Positions 8,410 through 46,641 of a stretch of DNA of 50,048 nt are shown here, piece by piece (the stretch's first letter is position 1; the number at the start of each line of letters is the position of its first letter). This DNA comes from Escherichia phage vB_EcoS_IME347. The notes beneath the pieces are model-generated. The model saw nothing but the letters and a program-made list of their open reading frames with translations, did not search any database and had not been told where the DNA came from. Location: sequence record MH051918, one strand, 5' to 3'. Both the position numbers and the translations under genes were made by a program.

Positions 8410-8640
8410 ATGTTTGGTTTAAGTGAAGCGCATTACAATATTGTCAAACGTGCGGCGCGCGGTCTGAACGACGCAATCAGCGAACTACCGAAGGCCGATC
8501 GAAAGAAGGAGCAAATCGTCATTAAGGTGATCGATAAGCATTACGAACCAGTTGCGACACTGATTAACCGGATGCGCTTCGTTTGGGTGGCGGGCTATCT
8601 CGCCGGGCGCGTAGGAAACAAAAATGGGGACTACGAATAA
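8410..8640 (+). CDS. hypothetical early protein (76 aa)
   Basis: In-frame ATG at 8410 within track ORF. Confidence 0.45.
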   Translation: MFGLSEAHYNIVKRAARGLNDAISELPKADRKKEQIVIKVIDKHYEPVATLINRMRFVWVAGYLAGRVGNKNGDYE

Positions 8641-8834
8641 TGATCGGGAAAGTGGATTGGGTGAAGTGCGAACGGGCATATCACGAAAGCGGGTTCACGG
8701 CGGGTTGCGAATATCAGGTTCTGAAGTTCGATTCCCGGCTCGGAGTCATGACGATCCAGAATGAGCGCGGCGAGCGTTGCTTGGTGAGTCACCCTCACGA
8801 CATAAATTACGGAGAGTTTCGAATTATCGATTGA
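8640..8834 (+). CDS. hypothetical early protein (64 aa)
   Basis: TAATG overlap with the upstream ORF. Confidence 0.45.
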   Translation: MIGKVDWVKCERAYHESGFTAGCEYQVLKFDSRLGVMTIQNERGERCLVSHPHDINYGEFRIID

Positions 8835-8990
8835 CTCGAATCTCTGAACGGTGATATCATTCTTTCCGTAGACAAAAGAGGCGCTTAGGCGCAACGCGCA
8901 TCGCGATAGATGCATAACCTTTGTAGTATCGGGGCGTAGTGGTAAGCCCGCCGCAGACCCGTAAGCGGCTCAAATTCACAGGAGCTTTAC

Positions 8991-9152
8991 ATGAAGCAAG
9001 ATATCAAAATCGAAATCAAAGTAACCCGAAACGGCGAAATCACTCGCTACAAAAAATCACTCAAGCCGGGCGAGGCTGTAATCGGTCGAATCGCTGGTGT
9101 GATGCTGAAGGCGCAGGAAGATGAAGCGATTCACGGTAAAGCTAACGATTAA
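8991..9152 (+). CDS. small hypothetical protein (53 aa)
   Basis: AGGAG 7 nt upstream of ATG 8991; partially overlaps the alternative track ORF 9121..9306, so only one of the two may be real. Confidence 0.3.
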   Translation: MKQDIKIEIKVTRNGEITRYKKSLKPGEAVIGRIAGVMLKAQEDEAIHGKAND

Positions 9153-9308
9153 GCGAATGGGGCGCAGGTGCTCAACCTGCCGCCAAAACTTCGAAACCGA
9201 AGTAAAAGCGAGTTCCGCAGAAGAAGCCGTAGCAAAGGCTAAACTCCAGTCAGGAGCCAATGCGGACACTCACCAGTTTTCAATCAACCTTGTAAGGGAA
9301 ATTTAACC

Positions 9309-9533
9309 ATGACAACTTTTTTATTCATTCTCGCCTTTATCGCTGTTTTCGTGCTTGGTATCGCGTCTGCTCTTCTGCTTATCGCCTTTATCGTGAAGCA
9401 CGACGCCGAAACTGACGAAGGCGTGTGGCTGACGTACAATCGCAGTGAGGATGTTTGGAAGTGCTTCGGTGATTTGCCAGCAGTCTACGCGAAGGCTCAA
9501 ACTCACAAAAAGCCGATACAAAAAATCTGCTAA
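9309..9533 (+). CDS. small membrane protein (74 aa)
   Basis: N-terminal transmembrane helix FLFILAFIAVFVLGIASALLLIAFIV; last ORF before the early-region terminator. Confidence 0.5.
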   Translation: MTTFLFILAFIAVFVLGIASALLLIAFIVKHDAETDEGVWLTYNRSEDVWKCFGDLPAVYAKAQTHKKPIQKIC

Positions 9534-9537
9534 AACT

Positions 9538-9561
9538 AAACCCGCCTCGGCGGGTTTTTTT
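9538..9561 (+). terminator. intrinsic terminator ending the early gene array
   Basis: GC stem cccgcc-tcg-gcggg followed by a T7 run. Confidence 0.7.
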
Positions 9562-9579
9562 ACGTCTGGAGTATGATAA

Positions 9580-9598
9580 AATAGCACGAAATGTTAAA
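9580..9598 (+). promoter_or_regulatory. intergenic motif copy (AATAGCACGAAATGTTAAA) upstream of terS
   Basis: Motif variant between the terminator and the RBS GGAGG at 9604-9608. Confidence 0.45.
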
Positions 9599-9614
9599 CA
9601 TCGGAGGACGTTTT

Positions 9615-10139
9615 ATGGAACGGAAAGAGAAAGCGCCCGTAGTGCAGGGCGGTAATTTTAAGGAGCTATACCGAAAGAAATTCGGAACGATTATCGGAAA
9701 ATCAGCCAGCTTCACGCCTGAACAGGTTTTCGATCTGGCGGTGAAGTATTTCACGTGGGCGGAGGACAACGCAATTAAAGCCTCTGAGACAGCGAGTTTT
9801 CAGGGTGAAGTGGAGGAGTCACTCGTTCATAAACCGCGCGTGTTTACTCACAACGGCTTCCGCCTGTTCCTTGGGATCAGCGAGTCGGCGGTCACGAAGT
9901 GGCGGCGACAGGAAGATTTCGCAGAGGTGATGGAGTTCGTTGATACGGTAATCAGCGAGCAGAAATTCCAGCTTGCAGCTAACGGCGTGATTAATGCCTC
10001 GTTCATCGGGAAAGACTTGGGGATCGACAAGCCAGCGACAATCAACATCGACAACCAAGCGAACGCCACGGCGGGCGCGATCGCCTCCACTGAGTCCGCG
10101 ATGCGCGATGCGGTAGAGAGTATTCTGGATAACCTTTAA
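9615..10139 (+). CDS. terS: terminase small subunit (putative)
   Basis: ATG at 9615 with GGAGG RBS; lies immediately upstream of the large terminase gene; HTH-like segment. Confidence 0.55.
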   Translation: MERKEKAPVVQGGNFKELYRKKFGTIIGKSASFTPEQVFDLAVKYFTWAEDNAIKASETASFQGEVEESLVHKPRVFTHNGFRLFLGISESAVTKWRRQEDFAEVMEFVDTVISEQKFQLAANGVINASFIGKDLGIDKPATINIDNQANATAGAIASTESAMRDAVESILDNL

Positions 10140-35857: not shown

Positions 35858-35881
35858 ATAAAAAACCCGCCGAAGCGGGTT
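35858..35881 (-). terminator. intrinsic terminator (- strand) after the primase gene
   Basis: Reverse complement gives aacccgc-ttcg-gcgggtt followed by a T run. Confidence 0.55.
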
Positions 35882-36824
35882 AGATTAAATCCGATGCCTG
35901 ATAAAGCTTGCGTTCCATTCCTGACCGGAAACCTCCCGGATTCGGGATTATCACCTTCAACTCCCGATCGTCCGCCATATACAGAGCTTCCTTATCATCC
36001 GGCGAACATGCAACGCGCAACTCCCTTCCTCCTCTGTACCTGTATGCAACCATTTCCAGATTGGCAGGGGTGAAGCACGTCCACACCTCCTGCCCCGTCG
36101 CAAGGTGTACTCGCTGCGAGTCAATCCAATCAACGCAAAGGTAAATCGCCTTCTCAGTAGAACCTGTCACGGCAACCGATCCGGCAGTGTGCTTCCTTGC
36201 ATAGAACGACTGCTCCCCCTCCTCATTAATGAATAGGATATTGCAAAACTCGTCGTCCAATTCATCTTCATGAACAAGGTGGCATGGAATGGCATGAATT
36301 ACCGATTCTCCGCCATTCTCCAGCGACTTCACGCCTACGGAGTACATCTTATCATCTGGTAGGAAGATCCCCTCATACGTGCTCAGTGGCGTCGTAGGGC
36401 GTAGTTCTGTCCTTTCCATTACAGCCGCGCAAGCCTCATGCTCTGCGATCGCAGCATTCACTACGGCAACCGGAGTGCGGCGAGCCTTTTTATTCGCCTT
36501 GACAATATACTCCTGCGGAACTTTACCCAAGAATCTCCCGGCAATATTGATTGCTTCGCTGTAGTCAGACCCGGAGAGTTTCATTAGCCAGCCGATACCC
36601 GTGTCGTTACCGCACGAGTTGCACACCGCGCCGCCGTCGCCCGGCTCATTTAGTTTATCAGTCCAGCGAAATCGATCTTTACCTCCGCAGTTTGGGCAAG
36701 GCTGGTGTTTCTTGTTAAAAACGTCGTTAGGTAGTCCGCAAACACTCTGCAAGATCTCACGCCACAGCCCTTTCATGTACGGAAGAACATCTTCTTTCTG
36801 GTACTGCATAAAGTTCTCGTTCAC
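35880..36824 (-). CDS. DNA primase (zinc-ribbon + TOPRIM-like)
   Basis: N-terminal zinc ribbon CPNCGG...CNSCGN and downstream acidic TOPRIM-like motifs; 314 aa. Confidence 0.7.
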   Translation of the reverse strand: MNENFMQYQKEDVLPYMKGLWREILQSVCGLPNDVFNKKHQPCPNCGGKDRFRWTDKLNEPGDGGAVCNSCGNDTGIGWLMKLSGSDYSEAINIAGRFLGKVPQEYIVKANKKARRTPVAVVNAAIAEHEACAAVMERTELRPTTPLSTYEGIFLPDDKMYSVGVKSLENGGESVIHAIPCHLVHEDELDDEFCNILFINEEGEQSFYARKHTAGSVAVTGSTEKAIYLCVDWIDSQRVHLATGQEVWTCFTPANLEMVAYRYRGGRELRVACSPDDKEALYMADDRELKVIIPNPGGFRSGMERKLYQASDLI

Positions 36825-36845
36825 TGAATTATCTCCAATAAAAAA

Positions 36846-36900
36846 CGCGTAACAGGAGTTTACCCGCTACGCGCTTTTGTGTTTTAGCTATTTGTGCTCT
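36846..36900 (-). promoter_or_regulatory. hairpin plus reverse-orientation motif copy at the end of the HTH gene
   Basis: On the - strand: motif GAGCACAAATAGCTAAAA (36883-36900, overlapping the stop of gene 36884..37327) followed by stem cgcgta..tacgcg and a T run. Confidence 0.45.
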
Positions 36901-37327
36901 CGACTTCATCCTTTCGAACTACGCGCATGAACTTGCGGTTCTTGCATCGTTTTTCAAGGCACTTTCCGTTAGAGTCGAACTTGAGATCGAATCGCAGCCA
37001 GCTTGCGCGATACCCGGTACAACCCTGACGACGATACGCGCGATGCGCCGCCTCCGCTCCCTGCCAAGAAATCATGCCGCGAACTTTCCATTCGTTCACA
37101 TTCTGATTTGTTACCTTCAGGGCTTTCGCCGTGGCGGAGGGGGAGCCGTAGAATTCGATCAGGGCGTCAAGTCTGGCGCGTAGTCCGGCGCGAACCTCAT
37201 CTTTCAGGATGTAGAATCCGCATCGCTTGCGAGGCTTTACATCTTTGCCCCGTCGTGTACCATTGTTCCCGTTCAGGTGACGACGATCGATTTCCCCGGT
37301 TGATTCTGCAATACGCTTGATTGTCAT
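36884..37327 (-). CDS. HTH-domain protein (YdaS/Cro-like), putative regulator
   Basis: Central segment GSPSATAKALKVTNQNVNEWKVRGMIS resembles a YdaS/Cro-type helix-turn-helix; divergent from the helicase gene. Confidence 0.4.
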   Translation of the reverse strand: MTIKRIAESTGEIDRRHLNGNNGTRRGKDVKPRKRCGFYILKDEVRAGLRARLDALIEFYGSPSATAKALKVTNQNVNEWKVRGMISWQGAEAAHRAYRRQGCTGYRASWLRFDLKFDSNGKCLEKRCKNRKFMRVVRKDEVESTNS

Positions 37328-37339
37328 AATAAATTCCTC

Positions 37340-37359
37340 AATAGCACTTTTTGTTAAAA
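37340..37359 (+). promoter_or_regulatory. intergenic motif copy (AATAGCACTTTTTGTTAAAA) upstream of the helicase gene
   Basis: Variant motif followed by inverted repeat gcgtg..cacgc enclosing TATTATAC. Confidence 0.45.
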
Positions 37360-37420
37360 CTAACTAATCGATGCGTGTATTATACAGTCAACGCACGAGT
37401 AACGCAAAGGATTAAGAACA

Positions 37421-39472
37421 GTGAAAATCACCCAAGAGACACGAGAGTATTTCCGCACTCAAAACATTAAAAAACAGATCGCAATGCTCGGGGAGGATTA
37501 CATCCGACGCACTCAGGAGCGCTTCCGGGTTGGCGATATCACCCCTTACGAATATCAGGTTGCGGCATACTTTGAGATCGCGAAGCGACTCGGGAAAGAG
37601 TACGAACATCCATTTTACGTAAAAGCCTCAGTATCTGCGGGCAAGACGATTATCTTCGCGATGGTGGCGAAACAATGTCAGGCGATGGGGCTGAAAATGC
37701 TCGTTCTCGCTCGTCAAGGTGAGATTGTGGATCAGGACAGTGAGGAGATTGACAACTTCGGAGTTCCGAATTCCATCTTCTCCGCATCGCTCGGAATCAA
37801 GTCCTGCCACTTCCCGATCGTGGTTGGCTCCGAAGGTACTGTAGGCAATGGCCTGTTCAATGAGTTATCCGATTTTGTCCCGCACGTAATCGGGATCGAT
37901 GAATGTCACCAAGTCGATTGGGAGGACGTGGCGAAGGCGATCGAAGGCAAAGAGTCCTATGCGCAAATGACCACGGATAAGGGATCTATCGTAATGGACG
38001 GCGATATTCCTCTGATTGGTGATGATGGATTGCCAGTTACCGGAACGAAGCGTTCTCAGTACACCGTAATCATCGTCGAAATGATGCGCCGTTGCCGGGA
38101 GAGATACGGGCATGAGTTGCGCGTGTTTGGCATGACGGGATCGGAGTATCGCGGCGTCGTTCCAATTCTCGTTGAGAACAAAAAGCTCGTTGGCTTCTGG
38201 CGTGAGCAGGTGACGAACATTGACACGAACTACCTGATTGAGTTCGGCTCAGTTGTCCCAACCGTGTTTGGCTCAACCGAGGGGGTTCATTACGATCTCG
38301 ACAAGTTCAAGGCGAGCGCCGAAGATGGTGTGTCGGACTTCTCAGAGAAAGAAATGAAGGCGATGGAGGCCGAAATCGTCAAGGATAAATCCTTGACCGA
38401 GAAGATTATGAAGATGGTTGCGAAGGAGGCGGAGAAGCGCAACGCCGTGCTTATCACCTGCGCCGGGCAGCGCCATTGCAAAGAAGCTGCGGCGGCATTG
38501 CCGCCGGGAAGCACTTACGCGATCATTACGGACAAGACAAGCCCGAAAGCACGACAGAAGATTTTGGACGACGTTCGCGCCGGGAAAATCAAGTACACCT
38601 TTCAGGTAATGGCGTTAACGACGGGCGTAAACGTTCCGAATTGGGACTTCTCCGTTATCCTACGCAAGATCGGCTCGCTGACATTGCTGATTCAGCTTTT
38701 AGGGCGCGGAATGCGACTGCTGAAGAAATGGCAAATTGAGCAGGGAATGGTTAAGACTGACCATCTTGTATGGGACTTCGCCGGAACTATGGACGAGTTG
38801 GGGCAGCTTTATTTCGATCCAATTTTGGAACAAGCTCAATATCAGCGCCGTTTCGAAAACGGGAAAGACCCGAAGAAATGCGAATTATGCGGTCACGAAA
38901 ACAGCTTCTATGCGCGTCGTTGCGTGAACGTTATCAACGGCCAGCGCTGTGAGCACTTCTGGACATATCAGACCTGTGAAGATCAGGTAGACGAGAAAAC
39001 AAACAAGGTTCTCGTTAAGGGCTGCGGGGCGAAAAACGACGTGGTAGCGCGTGTTTGCCGTTGCTGTGACGTATCGCTTGTCGATCCTAACCTGAAGTTA
39101 TCCGGCAAGGCGTACACGAAAAACGATTGGTACGACGTGAAACACTTCGAAGTTAAGTTGACGAAAAACCAAAAGGGGATAATATTCCATTACGTCCTTG
39201 ATAATGGCGAGGGTGAATTTAATGCATACGAAAAATTCTTCCCGGAGTCCGATGCGAAAGTGTGCGGGACGCTGTGGAAAACGAAAGGTGTATTGCCGCA
39301 CGTATTCGATCCGAAGATGCGCAAATACTTCATTGGGATGAAGAAAGCAATCAAGATCCTGCAATACGCACACCACATTAAAGCGCCTGTTAGAGTCACT
39401 CACCGCCGCAACGCGAAGAAAGAGGACTTAATCAGCCGCAAAGATTTCGGAATGGAGGAAATTCCAGAATGA
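37421..39472 (+). CDS. superfamily II DNA helicase (DExH-box)
   Basis: Walker A VSAGKTIIF and DExH motif GIDECHQ; C-terminal Cys-rich zinc-finger-like region; GTG start as in the track. Confidence 0.75.
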   Translation: MKITQETREYFRTQNIKKQIAMLGEDYIRRTQERFRVGDITPYEYQVAAYFEIAKRLGKEYEHPFYVKASVSAGKTIIFAMVAKQCQAMGLKMLVLARQGEIVDQDSEEIDNFGVPNSIFSASLGIKSCHFPIVVGSEGTVGNGLFNELSDFVPHVIGIDECHQVDWEDVAKAIEGKESYAQMTTDKGSIVMDGDIPLIGDDGLPVTGTKRSQYTVIIVEMMRRCRERYGHELRVFGMTGSEYRGVVPILVENKKLVGFWREQVTNIDTNYLIEFGSVVPTVFGSTEGVHYDLDKFKASAEDGVSDFSEKEMKAMEAEIVKDKSLTEKIMKMVAKEAEKRNAVLITCAGQRHCKEAAAALPPGSTYAIITDKTSPKARQKILDDVRAGKIKYTFQVMALTTGVNVPNWDFSVILRKIGSLTLLIQLLGRGMRLLKKWQIEQGMVKTDHLVWDFAGTMDELGQLYFDPILEQAQYQRRFENGKDPKKCELCGHENSFYARRCVNVINGQRCEHFWTYQTCEDQVDEKTNKVLVKGCGAKNDVVARVCRCCDVSLVDPNLKLSGKAYTKNDWYDVKHFEVKLTKNQKGIIFHYVLDNGEGEFNAYEKFFPESDAKVCGTLWKTKGVLPHVFDPKMRKYFIGMKKAIKILQYAHHIKAPVRVTHRRNAKKEDLISRKDFGMEEIPE

Positions 39473-39894
39473 TTACAGATAAGGGCGATTATTTAGAGTT
39501 TTACGAGCGCGACCCGAGCGACACGAGAAAGGAGGTAGTTCACCAAATTGAGAGCACTTCCTTTTTGAAAGTTCGACACCCTGACTTGCTGTTTTGGCAT
39601 AGTGTCAACGAGAACGAGAAGAGCAAGGCGACCGCAATGATTGATCAGCAATCCGGCTTATTGAAGGGAGTTAGTGACTTCGTTTTCCTGATTGGTTTCA
39701 ATCACCGATACCCGTTCGCCGCAATCGAACTTAAGCGCGTGAATAAGTCCGGCAAAGGCAAGGCGTCACCCGTAAGCGATGAACAGAAAGCCTTCTTGCG
39801 GAAGGTCAGGGAGCGAGGCGGGTTCGCCGCAGTAGCCTACGGGGTGGAGCAGTTAAAACTCGCAGTAGCTGAAATGCTCAAACAGCACGAATAG
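39469..39894 (+). CDS. VRR-NUC domain nuclease
   Basis: 141 aa; GVSDFV...AIELKRVN...EQKAF pattern typical of VRR-NUC; ATGA overlap with the helicase gene. Confidence 0.6.
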   Translation: MITDKGDYLEFYERDPSDTRKEVVHQIESTSFLKVRHPDLLFWHSVNENEKSKATAMIDQQSGLLKGVSDFVFLIGFNHRYPFAAIELKRVNKSGKGKASPVSDEQKAFLRKVRERGGFAAVAYGVEQLKLAVAEMLKQHE

Positions 39895-39954
39895 CTAAAA
39901 CAGCCGGAAAGGAATCCGGCATAATCACCACATCGAAACAACGGAGAGAAACAA

Positions 39955-40668
39955 ATGAAAGATATCGAAGATATTTCAACGATCGACTTTGCGGAAACTG
40001 GATGTTCATTTACTCGCGAAGCGCTGGCGGTTTCCGGGTATTATTCAGCGGTTAAAACTCCAACCTGCAAAGAAATCTCAGGCCGCAGATACAAGGGAAC
40101 CAATACGCCGGACGCCGTTCGCGATCTGTGGAGCACTTCTCGCGAGGTCATTGCGTACATGGAAGGCAGATATGGGAAATATGATCTTGACGCTGCGGCG
40201 AGCGAAGATAATAAGGTCTGTGAGAAATTCTACTCACAGGAAACTAACTGCCTAAAAAGATGGTGGGGCAAGAACAAGCACGTTTGGCTGAATCCGCCAT
40301 ACAGCCGCCCGGACGCCTTCGTTAAAAAGGCTATTGAGCAAATGGAGCACGGAAACCAAATTGACATGCTTCTGCCCGCCGATAATTCTACGGCATGGTT
40401 TACTGAGGCTCGCCGTAACGCTGCGGAAATCATCTGGATTGAAGGCGATCTTTATCAGGATCTTGACGGTACGGAATACTCCCGTTCAGGACGTTTGGCC
40501 TTCATTTCTGGTGAAACCGGAAAGCCAGTTGACGGCAACAATAAAGGCTCTGTTATCTTTATCATGCGCCAACTCGCGGAAGGTGAGAAGCAGAAAACCC
40601 ACTATGTCAGCATTGCGGATATTTGCCCGTCCGTTAAAAACAAACGCGCAAGAGCGAGGAATATCTAA
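39955..40668 (+). CDS. dam: DNA N6-adenine methyltransferase (phage Dam-type)
   Basis: Catalytic NPPY motif (WLNPPYS); 237 aa; follows replication genes as in T1-like phages. Confidence 0.75.
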   Translation: MKDIEDISTIDFAETGCSFTREALAVSGYYSAVKTPTCKEISGRRYKGTNTPDAVRDLWSTSREVIAYMEGRYGKYDLDAAASEDNKVCEKFYSQETNCLKRWWGKNKHVWLNPPYSRPDAFVKKAIEQMEHGNQIDMLLPADNSTAWFTEARRNAAEIIWIEGDLYQDLDGTEYSRSGRLAFISGETGKPVDGNNKGSVIFIMRQLAEGEKQKTHYVSIADICPSVKNKRARARNI

Positions 40669-40910
40669 TGAATGAGAAAACTGTTTGCCTGAATGAATTT
40701 GGTCAATGGATGCTGTTCCGTGGGCTGGCGTGTTATGCGCTGGAGCGTCACGGCTTGACGGAAAAGGAATTGGGTTGCTCCCTTTGGGAATTCACGGAGT
40801 CGCTTGATATGTCATTCGAGGAAATTCGAAGTCTTGATTTGGCTCAGTGGGCTACAAAAGTAATGGCGGACGCCGAAGAGCTTAGAAACGAGATCGTGAA
40901 AAAGCACTAA
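40668..40910 (+). CDS. hypothetical protein (80 aa)
   Basis: ATGA overlap with dam; stop adjacent to a motif copy at 40901-40918. Confidence 0.45.
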   Translation: MNEKTVCLNEFGQWMLFRGLACYALERHGLTEKELGCSLWEFTESLDMSFEEIRSLDLAQWATKVMADAEELRNEIVKKH

Positions 40911-40975
40911 TTGCTAAACGTACCCGGCGCAAGTCGGGTATTATTGTTTTATTGAAACGAAACGGAGAATCACAA

Positions 40976-41173
40976 ATGACTCGCATCAATGAAGCTTTCT
41001 TTAAAATGGCTCAGTCCTCCGCTAAGACGGCGACGGAATTAACCTCGTATCACGCCGGGCAATTTGATTGGGCTATCGCAATGGACTTCCTGAAAATGGC
41101 TTACTACCGTTGCACCGTTGAGGATATGGAAGGTTTCATTCGTGACGTTGAGAAGGTACTGAATAGTGATTAA
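40976..41173 (+). CDS. hypothetical protein (65 aa)
   Basis: ATG at 40976 after ACGGAGAA; in frame with track ORF 40952..41173. Confidence 0.4.
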   Translation: MTRINEAFFKMAQSSAKTATELTSYHAGQFDWAIAMDFLKMAYYRCTVEDMEGFIRDVEKVLNSD

Positions 41174-41438
41174 AGAATCTGGAAGGCAAGCCGTTTGGAG
41201 TCACGCAAAAGAAACGGGGCTGGCGGACGGGATCGCACTAATTGCTAAATACTTCGATATAAAAGACGTTAGTATTATCGGCAACGGGAAGATAACCTTC
41301 ATCGAAGAGCTTCCCCGGAAGTGCCACCGAGTCCCGGCAACTCCCGGACTTGAGTTTTACCGGGAGGAGGGTAAGCGAATCATGCAAGAATTTAAGGCGA
41401 GCAAAAATGACAAGAGAACTTCCCGGCTTAAACGGTAA
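41166..41438 (+). CDS. hypothetical protein (90 aa)
   Basis: Overlapping start; ORF in track. Confidence 0.4.
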   Translation: MIKESGRQAVWSHAKETGLADGIALIAKYFDIKDVSIIGNGKITFIEELPRKCHRVPATPGLEFYREEGKRIMQEFKASKNDKRTSRLKR

Positions 41439-41737
41439 CTTTGACGGCTACCCGATCGTTGAGTTCGAAGGGGAGAAATATCGGGAGATTCCATTCTCTG
41501 ATTGGTTGCCTTCGGATTTCGAAACAGTTCCATGCAGCAGGGGGGGCGGTCTTATCCCGATGTGGTATAGCCCGGCTCGAAACCTTATGGTGTTTGATAA
41601 CGGCTGCGGAATGAAACCCTCCGATCTCAAAGTCTGGTTGAGGAAACTGTAGAATGTTCGGTTACTTTGGTGTAGTATTCACCCCCGTAATAGCTTTCAC
41701 TCTCATTTATTTAATTGTAATGTAAGGAATTAGAAAT

Positions 41738-42877
41738 ATGTCAATGTCAAAAATCACAACCGAACAGCTTATCGAAGAGCGCGAAAACGGCCTGACCCTT
41801 CGCGAGATCGCGGAGAAGTACGGGATGCATATCCGCACGGTTGAGGCTCGACACGCGAAGCTTGCAAAGGAAGGTCACTTCCACGGCAACAAGCACGTAG
41901 CCGCCAACGTTCCGACCGGGTTCGCCGTAAAAGGTACGTCCGTCATGATTGACGCCGAAGGCAACGAAAAGGTTCGCTGGGTTAAGACCGATCAGGACAA
42001 AGAGAAGATTTACCAACTCATGCAAGCGGCGCAGGTTGCATTTTGCGAAGAGTTGCCGCGCGAAGCCCCAACCCCGATCGAAATAAACAAGCGATTCGAC
42101 GAGGATTCGCTGGCGCTTTACCCGGTATTCGATCTTCATATCGGCGCACTGGCGCACAAGCACGAGTCCGGCGAGAACTACTCCACCGATATCGCGGAAG
42201 ATGTTCTGAACAAGTATTTCGGCTATGCAGTCGGCAAGGCTCCTAACGCACAAAAAGCCGTCCTGTTAATCGGCGGTGACTTCCTGCACTCTGACGGCCT
42301 TGACGCTGTTACCCCGGCAAGCGGTCATGTTCTGGATCAGGACTCGCGTTATGCCAAACTGGTTTACGTCGCAATCCGCGCTACTCGCCGGGCGATCGCT
42401 AAGATGCTGGAGAAACATGCTGAGGTTGAGGTTCAGATTATCGAAGGCAACCACGATCAGGCAGGTATGATTTGGCTACGCGCTGCAATGGCGGCATACT
42501 ACGAGGACGAGCCGCGCGTGAACGTTGACGTTAGCCCGATGATTCTGCACAAAACCCGTTGGGGCAAAACGCTGTTAGGCTACACTCACGGTCACACGAT
42601 GAAGAAAGCGGACACTCGCCTTGCAGCAATGGCGGCAGACTTCCGCGATGATTTCGGCGCGAGCAAGTACGTTTACACTCACAGCGGTCATTGGCATCAC
42701 CAGACGATCACCGAGCATACGTTGGGTATCGACGAGGTTCACGGTCAACTCGGGGCGAAGGATGCTTATGCGGCTCGCGGCGGCTGGCGAGCGTACCGTC
42801 AAGCGGCTGTTATCGTGTACTCAAAAGAGTTTGGCGAGATCGGGCGCTTTATCTACCGTCCAGAAATGACGGCGTAA
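41738..42877 (+). CDS. HTH-fused calcineurin-like metallophosphoesterase
   Basis: N-terminal HTH-like LTLREIAEKYGMHIRTV; phosphoesterase motifs DLHIG, GGDFLHSD, GNHD, GHTH/GHWH in canonical order; RBS AAGGAA. Confidence 0.65.
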   Translation: MSMSKITTEQLIEERENGLTLREIAEKYGMHIRTVEARHAKLAKEGHFHGNKHVAANVPTGFAVKGTSVMIDAEGNEKVRWVKTDQDKEKIYQLMQAAQVAFCEELPREAPTPIEINKRFDEDSLALYPVFDLHIGALAHKHESGENYSTDIAEDVLNKYFGYAVGKAPNAQKAVLLIGGDFLHSDGLDAVTPASGHVLDQDSRYAKLVYVAIRATRRAIAKMLEKHAEVEVQIIEGNHDQAGMIWLRAAMAAYYEDEPRVNVDVSPMILHKTRWGKTLLGYTHGHTMKKADTRLAAMAADFRDDFGASKYVYTHSGHWHHQTITEHTLGIDEVHGQLGAKDAYAARGGWRAYRQAAVIVYSKEFGEIGRFIYRPEMTA

Positions 42878-42896
42878 ATAGCACAAATAGCTAAAG
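42876..42896 (+). promoter_or_regulatory. intergenic motif copy (AAATAGCACAAATAGCTAAAG) with hairpin + TTATAGT
   Basis: Motif overlaps stop TAA; followed by inverted repeat ggggtaacg..gttacccc. Confidence 0.45.
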
Positions 42897-42951
42897 ACAA
42901 ATCAGGGGTAACGAGTTATAGTTACCCCACACAAACAAAGGAGATTTAGCA

Positions 42952-43059
42952 ATGAAAGAGTTCATCTTGAAAACTGTAATCCCATTCGTTGCCGGAGCAG
43001 CAGTAACGGGCTTCTTTATTTGGGTTTTGTCTTTGGCTGGAGACTTCAACGGTTTCTGA
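42952..43059 (+). CDS. small membrane peptide (35 aa)
   Basis: AAGGAG RBS; hydrophobic translation MKEFILKTVIPFVAGAAVTGFFIWVLSLAGDFNGF; below track cutoff. Confidence 0.25.
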   Translation: MKEFILKTVIPFVAGAAVTGFFIWVLSLAGDFNGF

Positions 43060-43069
43060 GGAAAAATAA

Positions 43070-43246
43070 ATGACTCGTGTAAAGTGCATTCGCAATGATT
43101 CCAAATCGCTCCCGTTCCAAGTGAACCAGATCTACTCTGTGGGCTACCATCACGGCGGCGGGATTTACGAGATCTACGACGGGCAAGGCTCTGCAATCCA
43201 AGCGCCTCTGAACGGATTCTATCTCGAATTCATTGCCGTAAAATAA
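43070..43246 (+). CDS. small hypothetical protein (58 aa)
   Basis: ATG at 43070; followed by an intrinsic terminator; N-terminal motif related to ORF 4726 and 7442. Confidence 0.3.
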   Translation: MTRVKCIRNDSKSLPFQVNQIYSVGYHHGGGIYEIYDGQGSAIQAPLNGFYLEFIAVK

Positions 43247-43271
43247 ACCATGCAAATCAATCAAATAACCT

Positions 43272-43297
43272 AAAGGGGGCTTTATGCCTCCTTTTTG
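43272..43297 (+). terminator. intrinsic terminator upstream of the lysis cassette
   Basis: gggggc-ttta-tgcctcc hairpin followed by a T5 run. Confidence 0.5.
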
Positions 43298-43367
43298 TGC
43301 TGTTCCTTTTCTGACCCCCTTCCTATATTATATCCCCACTACATTTTTTAACTTTGGGGAATAATCC

Positions 43368-43583
43368 ATGAAAGACTTTATTAACGCTGCAATGTCCGGC
43401 ACGGGCGGAGCAACCCTCACGAGTGCGGCAACCGGGCAGTTGATGATCGCCGCGCTGACCTTCGTTTTCTTTATGTCCTTTGGTGTTTGGGGCGCTTACT
43501 GGAAGTACCGAGACAGCAAAGCGATCCGGGAAGCTATCGACGCCGGGGATCTGAAAACAGCAATCTCAATCAGGAATAAATAA
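43368..43583 (+). CDS. holin (pinholin-like, two predicted TMDs)
   Basis: 71 aa; weakly hydrophobic Gly/Ala/Thr-rich TMD1 and hydrophobic TMD2, charged C-terminus; immediately upstream of the endolysin. Confidence 0.55.
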
Positions 43584-43585
43584 TT

Positions 43586-44083
43586 ATGGGCGCAATCAAA
43601 AATACATTGGTTGCGGCTGGCGTTTCTTCTGCGCTTGTCCTCATGCCGCAACTGATCGAGAAGTACGAGGATGTGAAGTTTGAAGTCTACTACGATATCG
43701 CGGGCGTCCCAACTGTATGCGCTGGCATTACCGGGAAAGACGTGATTATCGGCAAGAAGTACACGAAGCGGGAGTGTGACGCTCTGCTCATTAAGCATAT
43801 CAATTATGCTGCGTCGCAGGTTGATAAAGCCGTCACCTATCCGATCCCGGTAACGATGCGGGCGGCGATGTACAGCTTCGCCTACAATGCCGGAACCGGA
43901 GCGTTTCGCAAATCAACCATGCTCAAACTGATTAATAAGGGTGAGCTTAAAGCGGCCTGTAACGAGCTATGGAAGTGGACTTACTTCTATAACCCCAAGA
44001 CAGGCAAGAAAGAGAAATCGCGCGGCCTGAAGAACCGCAGGGCTTCAGAATTTGAATATTGCATGAAGGAGTTGCCGAAATGA
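43586..44083 (+). CDS. SAR-type endolysin (GH24 lysozyme, phage 21 R / P1 Lyz-like)
   Basis: N-terminal signal-anchor-release-like segment; catalytic region [25 protein letters not shown] and downstream [16 protein letters not shown]...WTY resemble SAR lysozymes. Confidence 0.8.
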
Positions 44084-44463
44084 AAAGAACAATCTTAGCT
44101 TGCTGCATTGCATTCGCTATCAGCACAATGACGGGCTGCGCTTTAAATCCGCTGGATGCGCTGACAGGTAAACCCGAAGTATCTGCGCAGGTTGGCGCGG
44201 AGAACGTAAAGCAGGGGATCGGCGTCACAGCAAAGAACGAGCAGAAGAGCGAAACCAACGTGAAGGATTCGCAGATCGGGAAGGTTGACTCCTCCACCAA
44301 GAAAACGGAGAGCATTAAGGCGGGAACCATTCAGGCCGAACGCATCGAAGTAAACAATGGTGGCGGTTGGGACTATTTCGGATTCGGCTTTATCGTGGCG
44401 TGGGTACTGGCGGCGCTGTTAGTGTGGGCTGTGGAATACCGGAAAAAACACAAGGAGGCTTAG
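44080..44463 (+). CDS. unimolecular spanin (lipoprotein signal + C-terminal TMD)
   Basis: ATGA overlap with the endolysin; lipobox-like MTGC near the N-terminus and C-terminal [23 protein letters not shown], as in the T1 gp11-type u-spanin. Confidence 0.6.
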
Positions 44464-44478
44464 GCCTCCTTTTTTTAT
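44445..44478. terminator. bidirectional intrinsic terminator
   Basis: aaaaaacacaaggaggc-ttag-gcctcc followed by a T7 run, between the lysis cassette and the - strand array. Confidence 0.65.
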
Positions 44479-44598
44479 TCGTACCGGGTAGCGCTCAGAA
44501 TGCAAATTCCGTCGTCGTCTGCGAGGTTGTGACACTTCGCGCCTGATGCCCGCATAGACGACAGGAGGAGCGAAAGTATCGCTGTATTAAACTCCTCC

Positions 44599-44994
44599 TC
44601 ACTGAGCTTGTGCCTTGCGCACAATTCTACGTTCGAATCTATCAACATTTCTATTCTTGCCGAAGAGTTCTTCATCACTCAATTCCTCAATATGCATCAT
44701 TTCCCACGTATAGCGATTGCGATATCCCTCAAGGCAAGCGAATTGCATCATCACCGGGCGCTTACGCTTCCCTTTGCAGAAGTATTCCTGACCAACCCGA
44801 TCCAGATACCCCTCAGTCATGCAGCGAGCGCAAAACTCCTTTGACAACGCACTCGTGAAAGTGCGCTTATCAAGATCTGCATTTCGTGCCATACGCTCAG
44901 TTTCTGGATGCCCGTAAATGAACCGGGCAATATGCTGACGTGTGTACTTGTCGTAACCCTCACAGAATTTGAACAGGTCAAGCAGAATCATCAC
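44599..44994 (-). CDS. hypothetical Cys-containing protein (131 aa)
   Basis: ORF in track directly downstream of the ATPase gene; the alternative overlapping ORF 44475..44678 (-) cannot be excluded. Confidence 0.4.
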   Translation of the reverse strand: MMILLDLFKFCEGYDKYTRQHIARFIYGHPETERMARNADLDKRTFTSALSKEFCARCMTEGYLDRVGQEYFCKGKRKRPVMMQFACLEGYRNRYTWEMMHIEELSDEELFGKNRNVDRFERRIVRKAQAQ

Positions 44995-45003
44995 TTCATC
45001 ACC

Positions 45004-46566
45004 TTACATTAAGCGCGGATTGATATAAATGTTGTCGTCCACACGGCAAACGTAATTCATGCTTTCCAGCGTTTCCAGCAACGTTTCGATACGCTCCGCA
45101 ACCTTTTGCTGCCCGTTAAACGGAGTGACGTTCCGGCACTTCGCGATCACGCTCTGAATCTGCGCCCGGCCTTTGTTCTTTTTGGCGATCTCACTAACCA
45201 CGTCGATAAGCTTGCGTGATTCAGCTTCATCACCTGCGAAACCTGCGGCGTTTGCAGACGAGAGATAAGTTTTTGACAACTCGTTAAACGTCATGATCGC
45301 TTCCTGCATTGTGTCCAAGTCGATCTCACGATTCGCCCGGTTCGGCTTCTCACCAGCCCAATTCTTGATCGTGTGAATCACGGACGCGATACGAATTACG
45401 TGTTTATCGAATTTCCCCAAGTGACCGCGCAACATGGAGTGTGAGTATTTCCCGCCCGCCGCGAAGCTGGCTTCCATATCCTGACGAGCAAGGTTCAGCG
45501 CTCGGGTTGCGTGAAGGCTCAGGCTGAAAACTACCTTCTCTTCGTTCATGACGTTATGAACGAGGCGGTAATATTTGCTCACGAGCGCCTTGTCAACTGG
45601 CTTGTAAACTGCGTCGCCGTTCTCGTCACACAATACGCGAGTACCCAAACGAGGCTCTTCGCGAACCAGTAAGAAACGCTCGGAAACACCGATACCGCGC
45701 TGACCTGCATCCATGATGCCCTTGATTGTTTCGTCCTGCGCGATTACGCAAATTGCACCAACCGGACGTAAAGAAAGGTTGTTGTCCTGATTGGATCGAG
45801 CTACTTCCATATGGTTCATATCCCAAGCCTTCAGGATTAGCTCGCTGTTCGACTTCTTATCAGTCCCGCCATACGTCAAACCGAGAAGTGTATTGATTGC
45901 CGTCGCTTCGTCCGAGATAACGGAGAAGTTACCCTGAATCGCCGCAACCTTAGCCAAACCCTCTGGAGTAGGATCGGAAACCGCAAACACAACGTTAGCA
46001 GCCTTTTTGAGCTTCTCTTCGATTTTCTCCTTCTCTTCGTACAGGGCAACCATTGAGTTTCCTTTTACGTCGTTCTTGATCTCCTTTTCGATCTTGCGGA
46101 GTTCCCCGGCGAGGCGTGAACGTTCGGCCTTACGCTTCTCGTTGATGCGGTCAATCTCTGCTCGCATCGGGTTAATGGCTGCGGAGTTGATCGCAGATTT
46201 ACCCGTTGACGGCGGCTGGCTGATTACCATGTAAAGTGCGGTTGGCTGCTCTTCACCGTGATAGTCAACCCAAAAGCGACCGAGCATCGCGGCGGACATA
46301 CATCCGATAAAGTGAGCGTATGCGGACGAAACCGGGAATTGCACTGATTCAGCTTTAGCCTTTGCGTATTCGTAAACGAGGTTATCGCCACCGAGGGAAA
46401 TCAACGGAAAACGATCGTTGCCGCTGTTAATCTCTTCGGGCTTATCCCAAAAAGCAAATGAATCCGAGAAGCCGTTTTCGCGAATAGCGATCGCCACCGG
46501 ATTTACTCCAGTAGCTGCGGCGATTTCTTGGATCTGATTGATGGAAAGTTTATTTTGGAAGAACAT
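45004..46566 (-). CDS. P-loop ATPase, putative replicative helicase/primase-associated (DUF3987-like)
   Basis: Walker A ISQPPSTGKSA and Walker B-like VISDEAT; 520 aa; preceded by a motif module at 46585-46637. Confidence 0.55.
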   Translation of the reverse strand: MFFQNKLSINQIQEIAAATGVNPVAIAIRENGFSDSFAFWDKPEEINSGNDRFPLISLGGDNLVYEYAKAKAESVQFPVSSAYAHFIGCMSAAMLGRFWVDYHGEEQPTALYMVISQPPSTGKSAINSAAINPMRAEIDRINEKRKAERSRLAGELRKIEKEIKNDVKGNSMVALYEEKEKIEEKLKKAANVVFAVSDPTPEGLAKVAAIQGNFSVISDEATAINTLLGLTYGGTDKKSNSELILKAWDMNHMEVARSNQDNNLSLRPVGAICVIAQDETIKGIMDAGQRGIGVSERFLLVREEPRLGTRVLCDENGDAVYKPVDKALVSKYYRLVHNVMNEEKVVFSLSLHATRALNLARQDMEASFAAGGKYSHSMLRGHLGKFDKHVIRIASVIHTIKNWAGEKPNRANREIDLDTMQEAIMTFNELSKTYLSSANAAGFAGDEAESRKLIDVVSEIAKKNKGRAQIQSVIAKCRNVTPFNGQQKVAERIETLLETLESMNYVCRVDDNIYINPRLM

Positions 46567-46619
46567 CGTTTTAACTCCTTATTGGACGGGGTAAATTATA
46601 CCCCGCCCATACTACACGC

Positions 46620-46637
46620 TTTTAGCTATTTGTGCCA
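46620..46637 (-). promoter_or_regulatory. intergenic motif copy (reverse) with hairpin carrying TATAAT
   Basis: On the - strand: TGGCACAAATAGCTAAAA overlapping stop of gene 46642..47058, then stem ggggtataatttacccc. Confidence 0.5.
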
Positions 46638-46641
46638 TTCG

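Follow-up and report, generated by a model that had tools for sequence, protein, structure and literature searches.

T1-like phages are common contaminants of Escherichia coli fermentations and, at the same time, candidates for phage therapy. To our knowledge, how they replicate without a polymerase of their own has never been worked out biochemically. In T1, the primase gene ST24 (- strand), a terminator, and the regulator gene ST23 (-) are followed by the ATP-dependent helicase gene ST22 (+), ST21, Dam, and onward through the lysis genes (+), and the opposite arm carries ST10 (-) and ST9 (-), a DUF3987 protein annotated as 'DNA helicase'. The same three genes are listed in the AAS23 genome paper, and the TLS genome paper (PMC11447400) notes that primase and helicase are oppositely oriented and describes T1-like phages as having no polymerase of their own and probably replicating with host enzymes. 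In 2016, Kazlauskas, Krupovic, and Venclovas (PMC4889955) connected DUF3987 with MCM/SF6; they pointed out a winged helix at its C terminus and its frequent fusion or adjacency to primases of the AEP or DnaG type, and they suggested that it serves phages as a replicative helicase. One member, the PriCT-DUF3987 protein AgaPH (2025, PMC11724360), has been characterized as an oligomeric, ATP-dependent 5'-3' helicase that binds, and pulls down with, the neighboring PrimPol. Here we consider the corresponding genes of Escherichia phage vB_EcoS_IME347 (sequence record MH051918), the window of 50,048 nucleotides being almost certainly its complete genome.

IME347 is a T1-like siphovirus of the Drexlerviridae; of the records in the GenBank phage collection, BrunoManser (Sertoctavirus, Drexlerviridae) and SRT8 come closest to it, with a nucleotide identity of approximately 79%. 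An earlier note, made from the letters of this DNA, had called a zinc-ribbon/TOPRIM primase, a DExH helicase, and a P-loop ATPase of 520 amino acids (aa), each in its own transcription unit, and had suggested that the ATPase may be the replicative helicase partner of the primase, which would leave recombination or repair to the DExH protein. All three open reading frames (ORFs) were found at the positions and on the strands it had assigned (Table 1). On balance, we are inclined to think that the ATPase, a DUF3987 protein, provides the phage with an MCM-like fork helicase of its own, perhaps also with its initiator by way of a winged helix, that the primase-fold protein is its partner, and that a RadD-like helicase together with a VRR-NUC nuclease processes branches. 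This interpretation is reasonable and matches published proposals, and it is not new. Likewise, the split layout is the standard genome plan of T1, long known and no peculiarity of IME347, and the genes are already so annotated in relatives. Hence, no new system is described here; what is confirmed is a family-wide set consisting of an MCM-like ring ATPase, a primase-fold protein, and a RadD-like helicase plus nuclease. What might surprise a specialist is only that the T1-type primases, as a whole clade, have lost the acidic residues canonical for TOPRIM.

The Pfam E values for these genes lie well outside the range of chance. The 520-aa protein matches DUF3987 (PF13148) with an E value of 3.7e-42 and 145 bits, against a gathering cutoff of 27, over profile positions 2 to 348 of 364, and carries a Walker A motif 'PPSTGKS' (K123) and a Walker B motif 'ISDE' (E220), which bears out its description as a P-loop ATPase. 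K123, E220, R257, R297, and K385 are invariant in an alignment of 65 sequences that reaches down to 23% identity. The ATPase site is intact, and R297, which lies in an MCM-style 'SERF', is presumably the arginine finger. Searches of PDB sequences with the protein, both singly and as a 65-sequence profile, gave no meaningful match, and neither did a search with the primase; for this reason we turned to fold comparison. The confident structure model (predicted local distance difference test score, 92) has an MCM-clade AAA+ fold followed by a C-terminal winged helix, in agreement with the assignment made in 2016. Among the 2,153 relatives recovered at E<=0.001 from 1.84 billion representative proteins, DUF3987 is found fused to a DnaG-type CHC2 zinc ribbon (P0272), to the N-terminal, primase-binding domain of DnaB (P0311), and to AEP Prim-Pol domains with or without PriCT_2 (P0356, P0373, and P0383). 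By virtue of these fusions with primase domains, the protein belongs to the primase-associated type of ATPase, the very point on which the earlier note had beforehand made its interpretation depend.

Some further features of the protein and its gene may be mentioned here. In the model, the Walker A helix is immediately followed by a long insertion of two helices (residues ~123 to 188). Direct DNA repeats near the gene were limited to units of 17 nucleotides (nt) at 46005-46090; these fall within the Glu/Lys-rich coding stretch of this helical insertion and are therefore not iterons. At 46566-46641 on the - strand, just upstream of the ribosome-binding site, lies a hairpin rich in GC (GGGCGGGG...ACCCCGTCC), the loop of which contains TATAAT. 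In nearly all related loci where both genes are visible, the gene for a PHROG 2794 protein begins ~6 to 12 nt downstream of the DUF3987 gene, and its product is a candidate helicase cofactor or loader.

The position of the DUF3987 gene, in a leftward block of many small early-type ORFs and far from other DNA-metabolism genes, would also suit a protein with no part in replication that serves early host takeover or counter-defense. We consider such a role very improbable. It would leave unexplained the MCM-like fold with its intact ATPase site and winged helix, the fusions to primases across the family, and the helicase activity demonstrated biochemically for the family member AgaPH, as well as the near-universal occurrence of the gene in T1-like phages, a full-length homologue being present in 912 GenBank phage records.

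The enzyme called a DExH helicase is an SF2 protein with motif I 'SAGKT' and motif II 'DECH'. Among proteins of known structure, E. coli RadD (PDB 6jde; E=1.9e-34) is the only one to which it is strongly related, and the alignment, over residues 59 to 168 and 259 to 561, takes in both RecA-like lobes and the Cys clusters of the zinc-finger region. The best NCBIfam match is likewise the RadD model, at 177 bits against an equivalog cutoff of 720 bits, which falls short of orthology; by sequence, the protein is thus RadD-like and not a RadD orthologue. RadD is an accessory factor of recombination and repair. The VRR-NUC gene always comes after the SF2 helicase gene in related loci, and the two are probably cotranslated, given the overlap of start and stop codons in IME347. 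RadD homology, the coupling to VRR-NUC, and the Erf/single-stranded DNA-binding protein (SSB)/exonuclease context fit a function in repair or recombination, in line with the role that had been suggested for the DExH protein.

We infer the pairing of the primase with the DUF3987 protein, in IME347 as in any T1-like phage, and a number of observations weigh against it. The two genes lie 8.2 kb apart and in different units in all Drexlerviridae loci examined. The primase of IME347 is neither fused to DUF3987 nor encoded directly upstream of it, an arrangement that does occur at the level of the family, and in published cases the primase is usually placed directly upstream of the helicase. No match was obtained when a hidden Markov model of the T1-type primase was run against 266 collected DUF3987-family proteins, including 22 of more than 600 aa, so that no fusion of this particular kind was seen among them. 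Around the primase and DUF3987 genes, a search for iterons and origin-like repeats returned only short two-copy matches and one coding-region repeat, and no origin can therefore be proposed near either gene. Furthermore, the invariant neighbor of the primase gene, in Drexlerviridae, Deseoctovirus, Skatevirus, and a Serratia phage, is the SF2 helicase gene, and it is the DUF3987 gene that moves or is replaced. To these points must be added the state of the primase active site, to which we return below. Hence, of the suggestion that the 520-aa ATPase is the replicative helicase partner of the primase, the type of ATPase and the agreement with published proposals stand, whereas the constant genomic partner of the primase turns out to be the other helicase.

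This constancy is best seen in the 80 loci that we recovered with the primase family from IMG/VR. The regulator, the divergent SF2 helicase, and VRR-NUC occupy the same relative places wherever the contig reaches. The divergent primase/SF2/VRR-NUC arrangement is present in 77 of the 80 Drexlerviridae-type loci, and the remaining three are truncated on the side in question. An upstream flank of more than 9.7 kb is available in 61 loci, and in 60 of these the DUF3987 gene is located 7.5 to 10 kb upstream on the primase strand. IME347 matches the whole plan of primase (-), regulator (-), SF2 helicase (+), VRR-NUC (+), Dam through lysis (+), PHROG-2794 (-), and DUF3987 (-), which is identical in T1 and BrunoManser. 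Outside the Drexlerviridae, Deseoctovirus C1 has DUF3987 (+), ASCH (+), primase (-), SF2 (+), and VRR-NUC (+) all inside 5.7 kb, with the DUF3987 gene only ~0.5 to 0.6 kb from the primase gene. In the Salmonella phage SeSz-2 (Skatevirus), the primase gene is again divergent from that of the SF2 helicase. Serratia phage Smarc2 (L007) keeps the primase/SF2/VRR-NUC module, and in some lineages the SF2 gene adjoins Erf, exonuclease, and SSB genes. The constant module is therefore primase plus SF2 plus VRR-NUC; a ring-type ATPase is present in most genomes examined, variable in family and position.

Two of these phages call for a separate remark. In Smarc2, the annotation of which includes no DUF3987 gene, a RecA/DnaB-type AAA_25 ATPase is encoded at 41654-43252 (+). 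It looks like the ring helicase has been replaced here by one of an unrelated family, which suggests that the slot for the ring helicase is separate from the SF2 enzyme. SeSz-2 (L003) encodes, beside its T1-type primase gene, a 495-aa protein (8499-9986, -) annotated as 'DNA primase' that has no Walker A motif. We considered it as a divergent DUF3987 protein and rejected it, both BLASTP and hhalign (probability, 1.3%) being negative. Its matches are to long fused 'primase' PHROGs (3022 and 25777), in their C-terminal halves; the zinc ribbon of the IME347 primase matches the N terminus of PHROG 25777.

The same synteny could be taken to mean that the RadD-like SF2 helicase is the working partner of the primase and the main replication helicase or initiator, with the DUF3987 protein in an accessory or early role. 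The divergent primase/SF2/VRR-NUC arrangement is, after all, kept in every lineage examined, C1, SeSz-2, and Smarc2 as well as the complete Drexlerviridae-type loci, and the TLS genome paper (PMC11447400) treats this primase and helicase as a replication-initiation pair. We nevertheless regard this main alternative as unlikely. It fits poorly with the homology to RadD, the closest characterized relative and an established repair and recombination accessory factor, and with the nuclease coupling, which along with the Erf/exonuclease/SSB neighbors of some lineages makes for a recombination context. In addition, no monomeric SF2 enzyme is known to act as a fork helicase coupled to a primase, and each of the complete genomes examined for a ring-type ATPase (T1, IME347, and Smarc2) has one, either DUF3987 or AAA_25, as does C1. 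The reading that we favor, with the DUF3987 protein at the fork, is supported by its identity, the intact ATPase site, the MCM-like model, the fusions with primase domains, and the biochemistry of AgaPH on the one hand and, on the other, by the RadD homology and VRR-NUC coupling of the SF2 enzyme, the proximity of the DUF3987 and primase genes in C1, the AAA_25 ATPase of Smarc2, and the C-terminal tip of the phage SSB described below.

The assessment of the primase is complicated by its catalytic domain. The zinc ribbon is unambiguous (PF08273, E=2.3e-15; PHROG 510 'DNA primase', E=5e-108), and its cysteines C43, C46, C68, and C71 are invariant in 29 homologues. The fold of the RNA-polymerase domain, an N-terminal subdomain plus TOPRIM, is present as well, with the TOPRIM part recognizable as a fold only. 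In the primases of IME347, T1 (ST24), C1 (gp72), SeSz-2 (gp9), and Smarc2, Pfam detects no Toprim match at E<=1, compared to 1.2e-12 (Toprim_3) for the P4 alpha protein, which served as a control. P4 alpha is the founding member of PF08273. Its 'AEGYATA' aligns to 'CVDWIDS' in IME347 (BLASTP, E=1e-12; hhalign against the P4-alpha family profile, probability 99.5%, E=8e-23), which places V231 at the position of the canonical catalytic Glu of TOPRIM strand 1. This position is variable across 121 homologues (V57, T14, D14, C8, N7, L6, S4, I3), and of the DxD motif only D277 is conserved, in 115 of the 121; the hhalign alignment to the P4 alpha profile ends at residue 262, ahead of the DxD region. 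The degenerate TOPRIM stretch corresponds to residues 228 to 290. Since both the canonical Glu and a full DxD are missing, synthesis of primers by this protein is not assured. Of the zinc-ribbon/TOPRIM primase called originally, the ORF, the zinc ribbon, and the TOPRIM fold thus remain, whereas the sequence signature and acidic hallmarks of TOPRIM do not.

On this basis, the active site may have been remodeled, or the protein may be non-catalytic. One could argue, as for metazoan Twinkle, that the 'primase' no longer makes primers and acts as a zinc-ribbon adaptor for DNA recognition or helicase loading, with host DnaG taking care of priming. The alignment of the P4 alpha Glu to a variable position, the retention of a single Asp of the DxD, and the lack of a Toprim match in the five T1-type primases are all compatible with such a loss. 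Yet the catalytic domain is strongly conserved, with N195, N255, E257, and C273 invariant and R270 (120/121), H177 (118/121), and D277 near-invariant among the 121 homologues. These conserved polar residues suggest that an active or binding site has been preserved, with E257 perhaps in place of the lost Glu. Moreover, Asp occupies position 231 in 14 of the homologues, and the whole architecture of zinc-binding domain and catalytic domain is kept in more than 1,000 phage genomes (full-length homologues occur in 1,049 GenBank phage records). We therefore find it improbable that primer synthesis has been given up. The more distant primases of C1 and SeSz-2 carry Trp instead of E257 and Lys instead of D277. 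Only tentatively, and with somewhat less doubt than for the loss of priming taken by itself, we entertain a broader proposal, namely, that the T1-type 'primase' is not a canonical TOPRIM enzyme and either has an active site rebuilt around an acidic residue at a new position or serves, without catalysis, as a zinc-ribbon adaptor, leaving priming to host DnaG while coupling to the MCM-like DUF3987 helicase. A search of the literature for the EGYATA motif and for the host dependence of classical T1 (requirement for dnaB or dnaG) yielded nothing usable. The annotation as 'primase', copied over more than 1,000 genomes, rests on the zinc ribbon and fold, without the catalytic motifs; should the protein prove inactive or unconventional, the accepted view of how T1 replicates would have to be revised.

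Returning to the DUF3987 protein as fork helicase, replication of IME347 might proceed as follows. DNA polymerization would rely on host Pol III. The DUF3987 protein, made from the leftward early block, would form an MCM-like hexameric AAA+ helicase and could act as initiator via its C-terminal winged helix. The zinc-ribbon primase-like protein would join it at the fork, either making primers or coupling the helicase to priming. The RadD-like helicase and VRR-NUC, together with Erf, an exonuclease VIII-like protein, and SSB, would process branched DNA in recombination-dependent replication and concatemer maturation.

With respect to expression, the three genes do lie in differently oriented blocks with strong hairpin and U-run structures between them, consistent with the separate transcription units claimed for them. 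The hairpin between the regulator and primase genes folds at -23.7 kcal/mol (z -5.2), a stability equaled in 0 of 200 shuffles, and T1 has an annotated terminator at the equivalent site. It probably attenuates read-through into the primase gene, expression of which may then depend on read-through or anti-termination, and there may be four units and not three. The regulator is kept in 78 of the 80 related loci (tblastn). The bidirectional hairpin at 44452-44471 stands between two blocks, the rightward one from helicase to lysis and the leftward early one, which has the DUF3987 gene and the gene downstream of it at its end. In the promoter and terminator scan, counts did not exceed those in shuffled sequence (17 versus 17.0 and 20 versus 19.4), and only hairpins that were individually strong after RNA folding were kept. 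The divergent intergenic region contains one sigma-70-like match, at 37354-37383, the promoter total not being above shuffle expectation. GC skew merely tracks the direction of transcription.

Table 1. Genes and sequence elements of the IME347 replication region (coordinates refer to the 50,048-nucleotide window)
Feature	Coordinates	Strand	Evidence
Intrinsic-terminator-like hairpin and U-run, right after primase stop codon	35864..35881	-	Terminator scan; RNA fold -11.8 kcal/mol, z -3.4
P4-alpha/T7-gp4-type primase-like protein: Cys4 zinc ribbon and DnaG-type RNA-polymerase domain, TOPRIM sequence-degenerate	35880..36824	-	
Strong hairpin, 18-bp stem, then U-run (UUUUUUAUU), between regulator stop codon and primase GTG start	36838..36877	-	
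Cro/YdaS-like helix-turn-helix (HTH) transcriptional regulator, upstream of primase on the same strand	36884..37327	-	PHROG 2856 E=6e-73; weak Pfam P22_Cro/YdaS matches
Divergent intergenic region, 93 bp, between regulator/primase arm and helicase arm; presumed promoters and operators	37328..37420	.	Gene orientation
RadD-like SF2 (DECH) helicase, 683 aa, C-terminal Cys-rich zinc-finger region	37421..39472	+	Pfam ResIII and Helicase_C
VRR-NUC nuclease, start overlapping helicase stop codon by 4 nt	39469..39894	+	Pfam PF08774 E=7.9e-11
Dam-type N6-adenine DNA methyltransferase	39955..40668	+	Pfam PF05869 E=1.6e-65
379-aa PHROG 704 protein ('DNA repair exonuclease')	41738..42877	+	PHROG 704 E=2e-154; weak HTH_23 match
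Terminator-like hairpin, bidirectional	44452..44471	.	Terminator scan, both strands; RNA fold z -4.3
131-aa PHROG 2794 protein, directly downstream of DUF3987 gene	44599..44994	-	PHROG 2794 E=3e-60
DUF3987 protein, 520 aa: MCM-like AAA+ (SF6) ATPase/helicase, helical insertion after Walker A, C-terminal winged helix	45004..46566	-	

Other genes of DNA metabolism lie nearby. Genes for Erf, SSB, and, by synteny, an exonuclease VIII-like protein are found just past the tail-fiber gene. The phage SSB (33469-33885, +) ends in NFDDDIPF, the acidic tip DDDIPF of which is identical to that of E. coli SSB; judging from this identity, it could recruit host SSB-binding replication and repair proteins, including parts of the replisome. 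The PHROG 704 protein, encoded between the Dam gene and the lysis cassette, has a possible N-terminal HTH and is kept in T1 (ST16).

Compared to systems that have been described, IME347 is closest to T1, with which it shares genes, order, strands, and spacing, the primase being 73%, the SF2 helicase 83%, and the DUF3987 protein 84% identical (tblastn against the T1 locus, L017); only T1 has an extra HNH gene beside ST9. The primase shares the zinc ribbon family PF08273 with P4 alpha, and their catalytic domains are homologous over ~250 residues. P4 alpha, however, is fused to an SF3 helicase and an origin-binding domain and has kept the EGYATA Glu and a recognizable Toprim_3, whereas the IME347 protein stands alone, has Val in place of this Glu, and shows no Toprim signature that can be detected in its sequence. 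The RadD-like helicase resembles E. coli RadD (YejH) in its SF2 core and zinc-finger region and differs in being ~100 aa longer and in the overlap of its gene with that for VRR-NUC. The DUF3987 protein resembles the archaeal and eukaryotic MCM helicases (SF6 AAA+), with a sequence identity of ~11 to 15%; unlike these, it has no N-terminal OB/zinc domain and carries the long helical insertion after Walker A. With AgaPH it has in common the ATPase family, both Walker motifs (A and B), and a small domain at the C terminus. AgaPH, which belongs to a pAgo-associated mobile element, carries a PriCT domain at its N terminus and is encoded directly beside an AEP PrimPol gene, whereas the IME347 protein has a different N terminus and is encoded 8.2 kb from a DnaG/P4-type primase-like gene. 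As the one characterized DUF3987 helicase, AgaPH moves 5'-3', opposite to MCM (PMC11724360).

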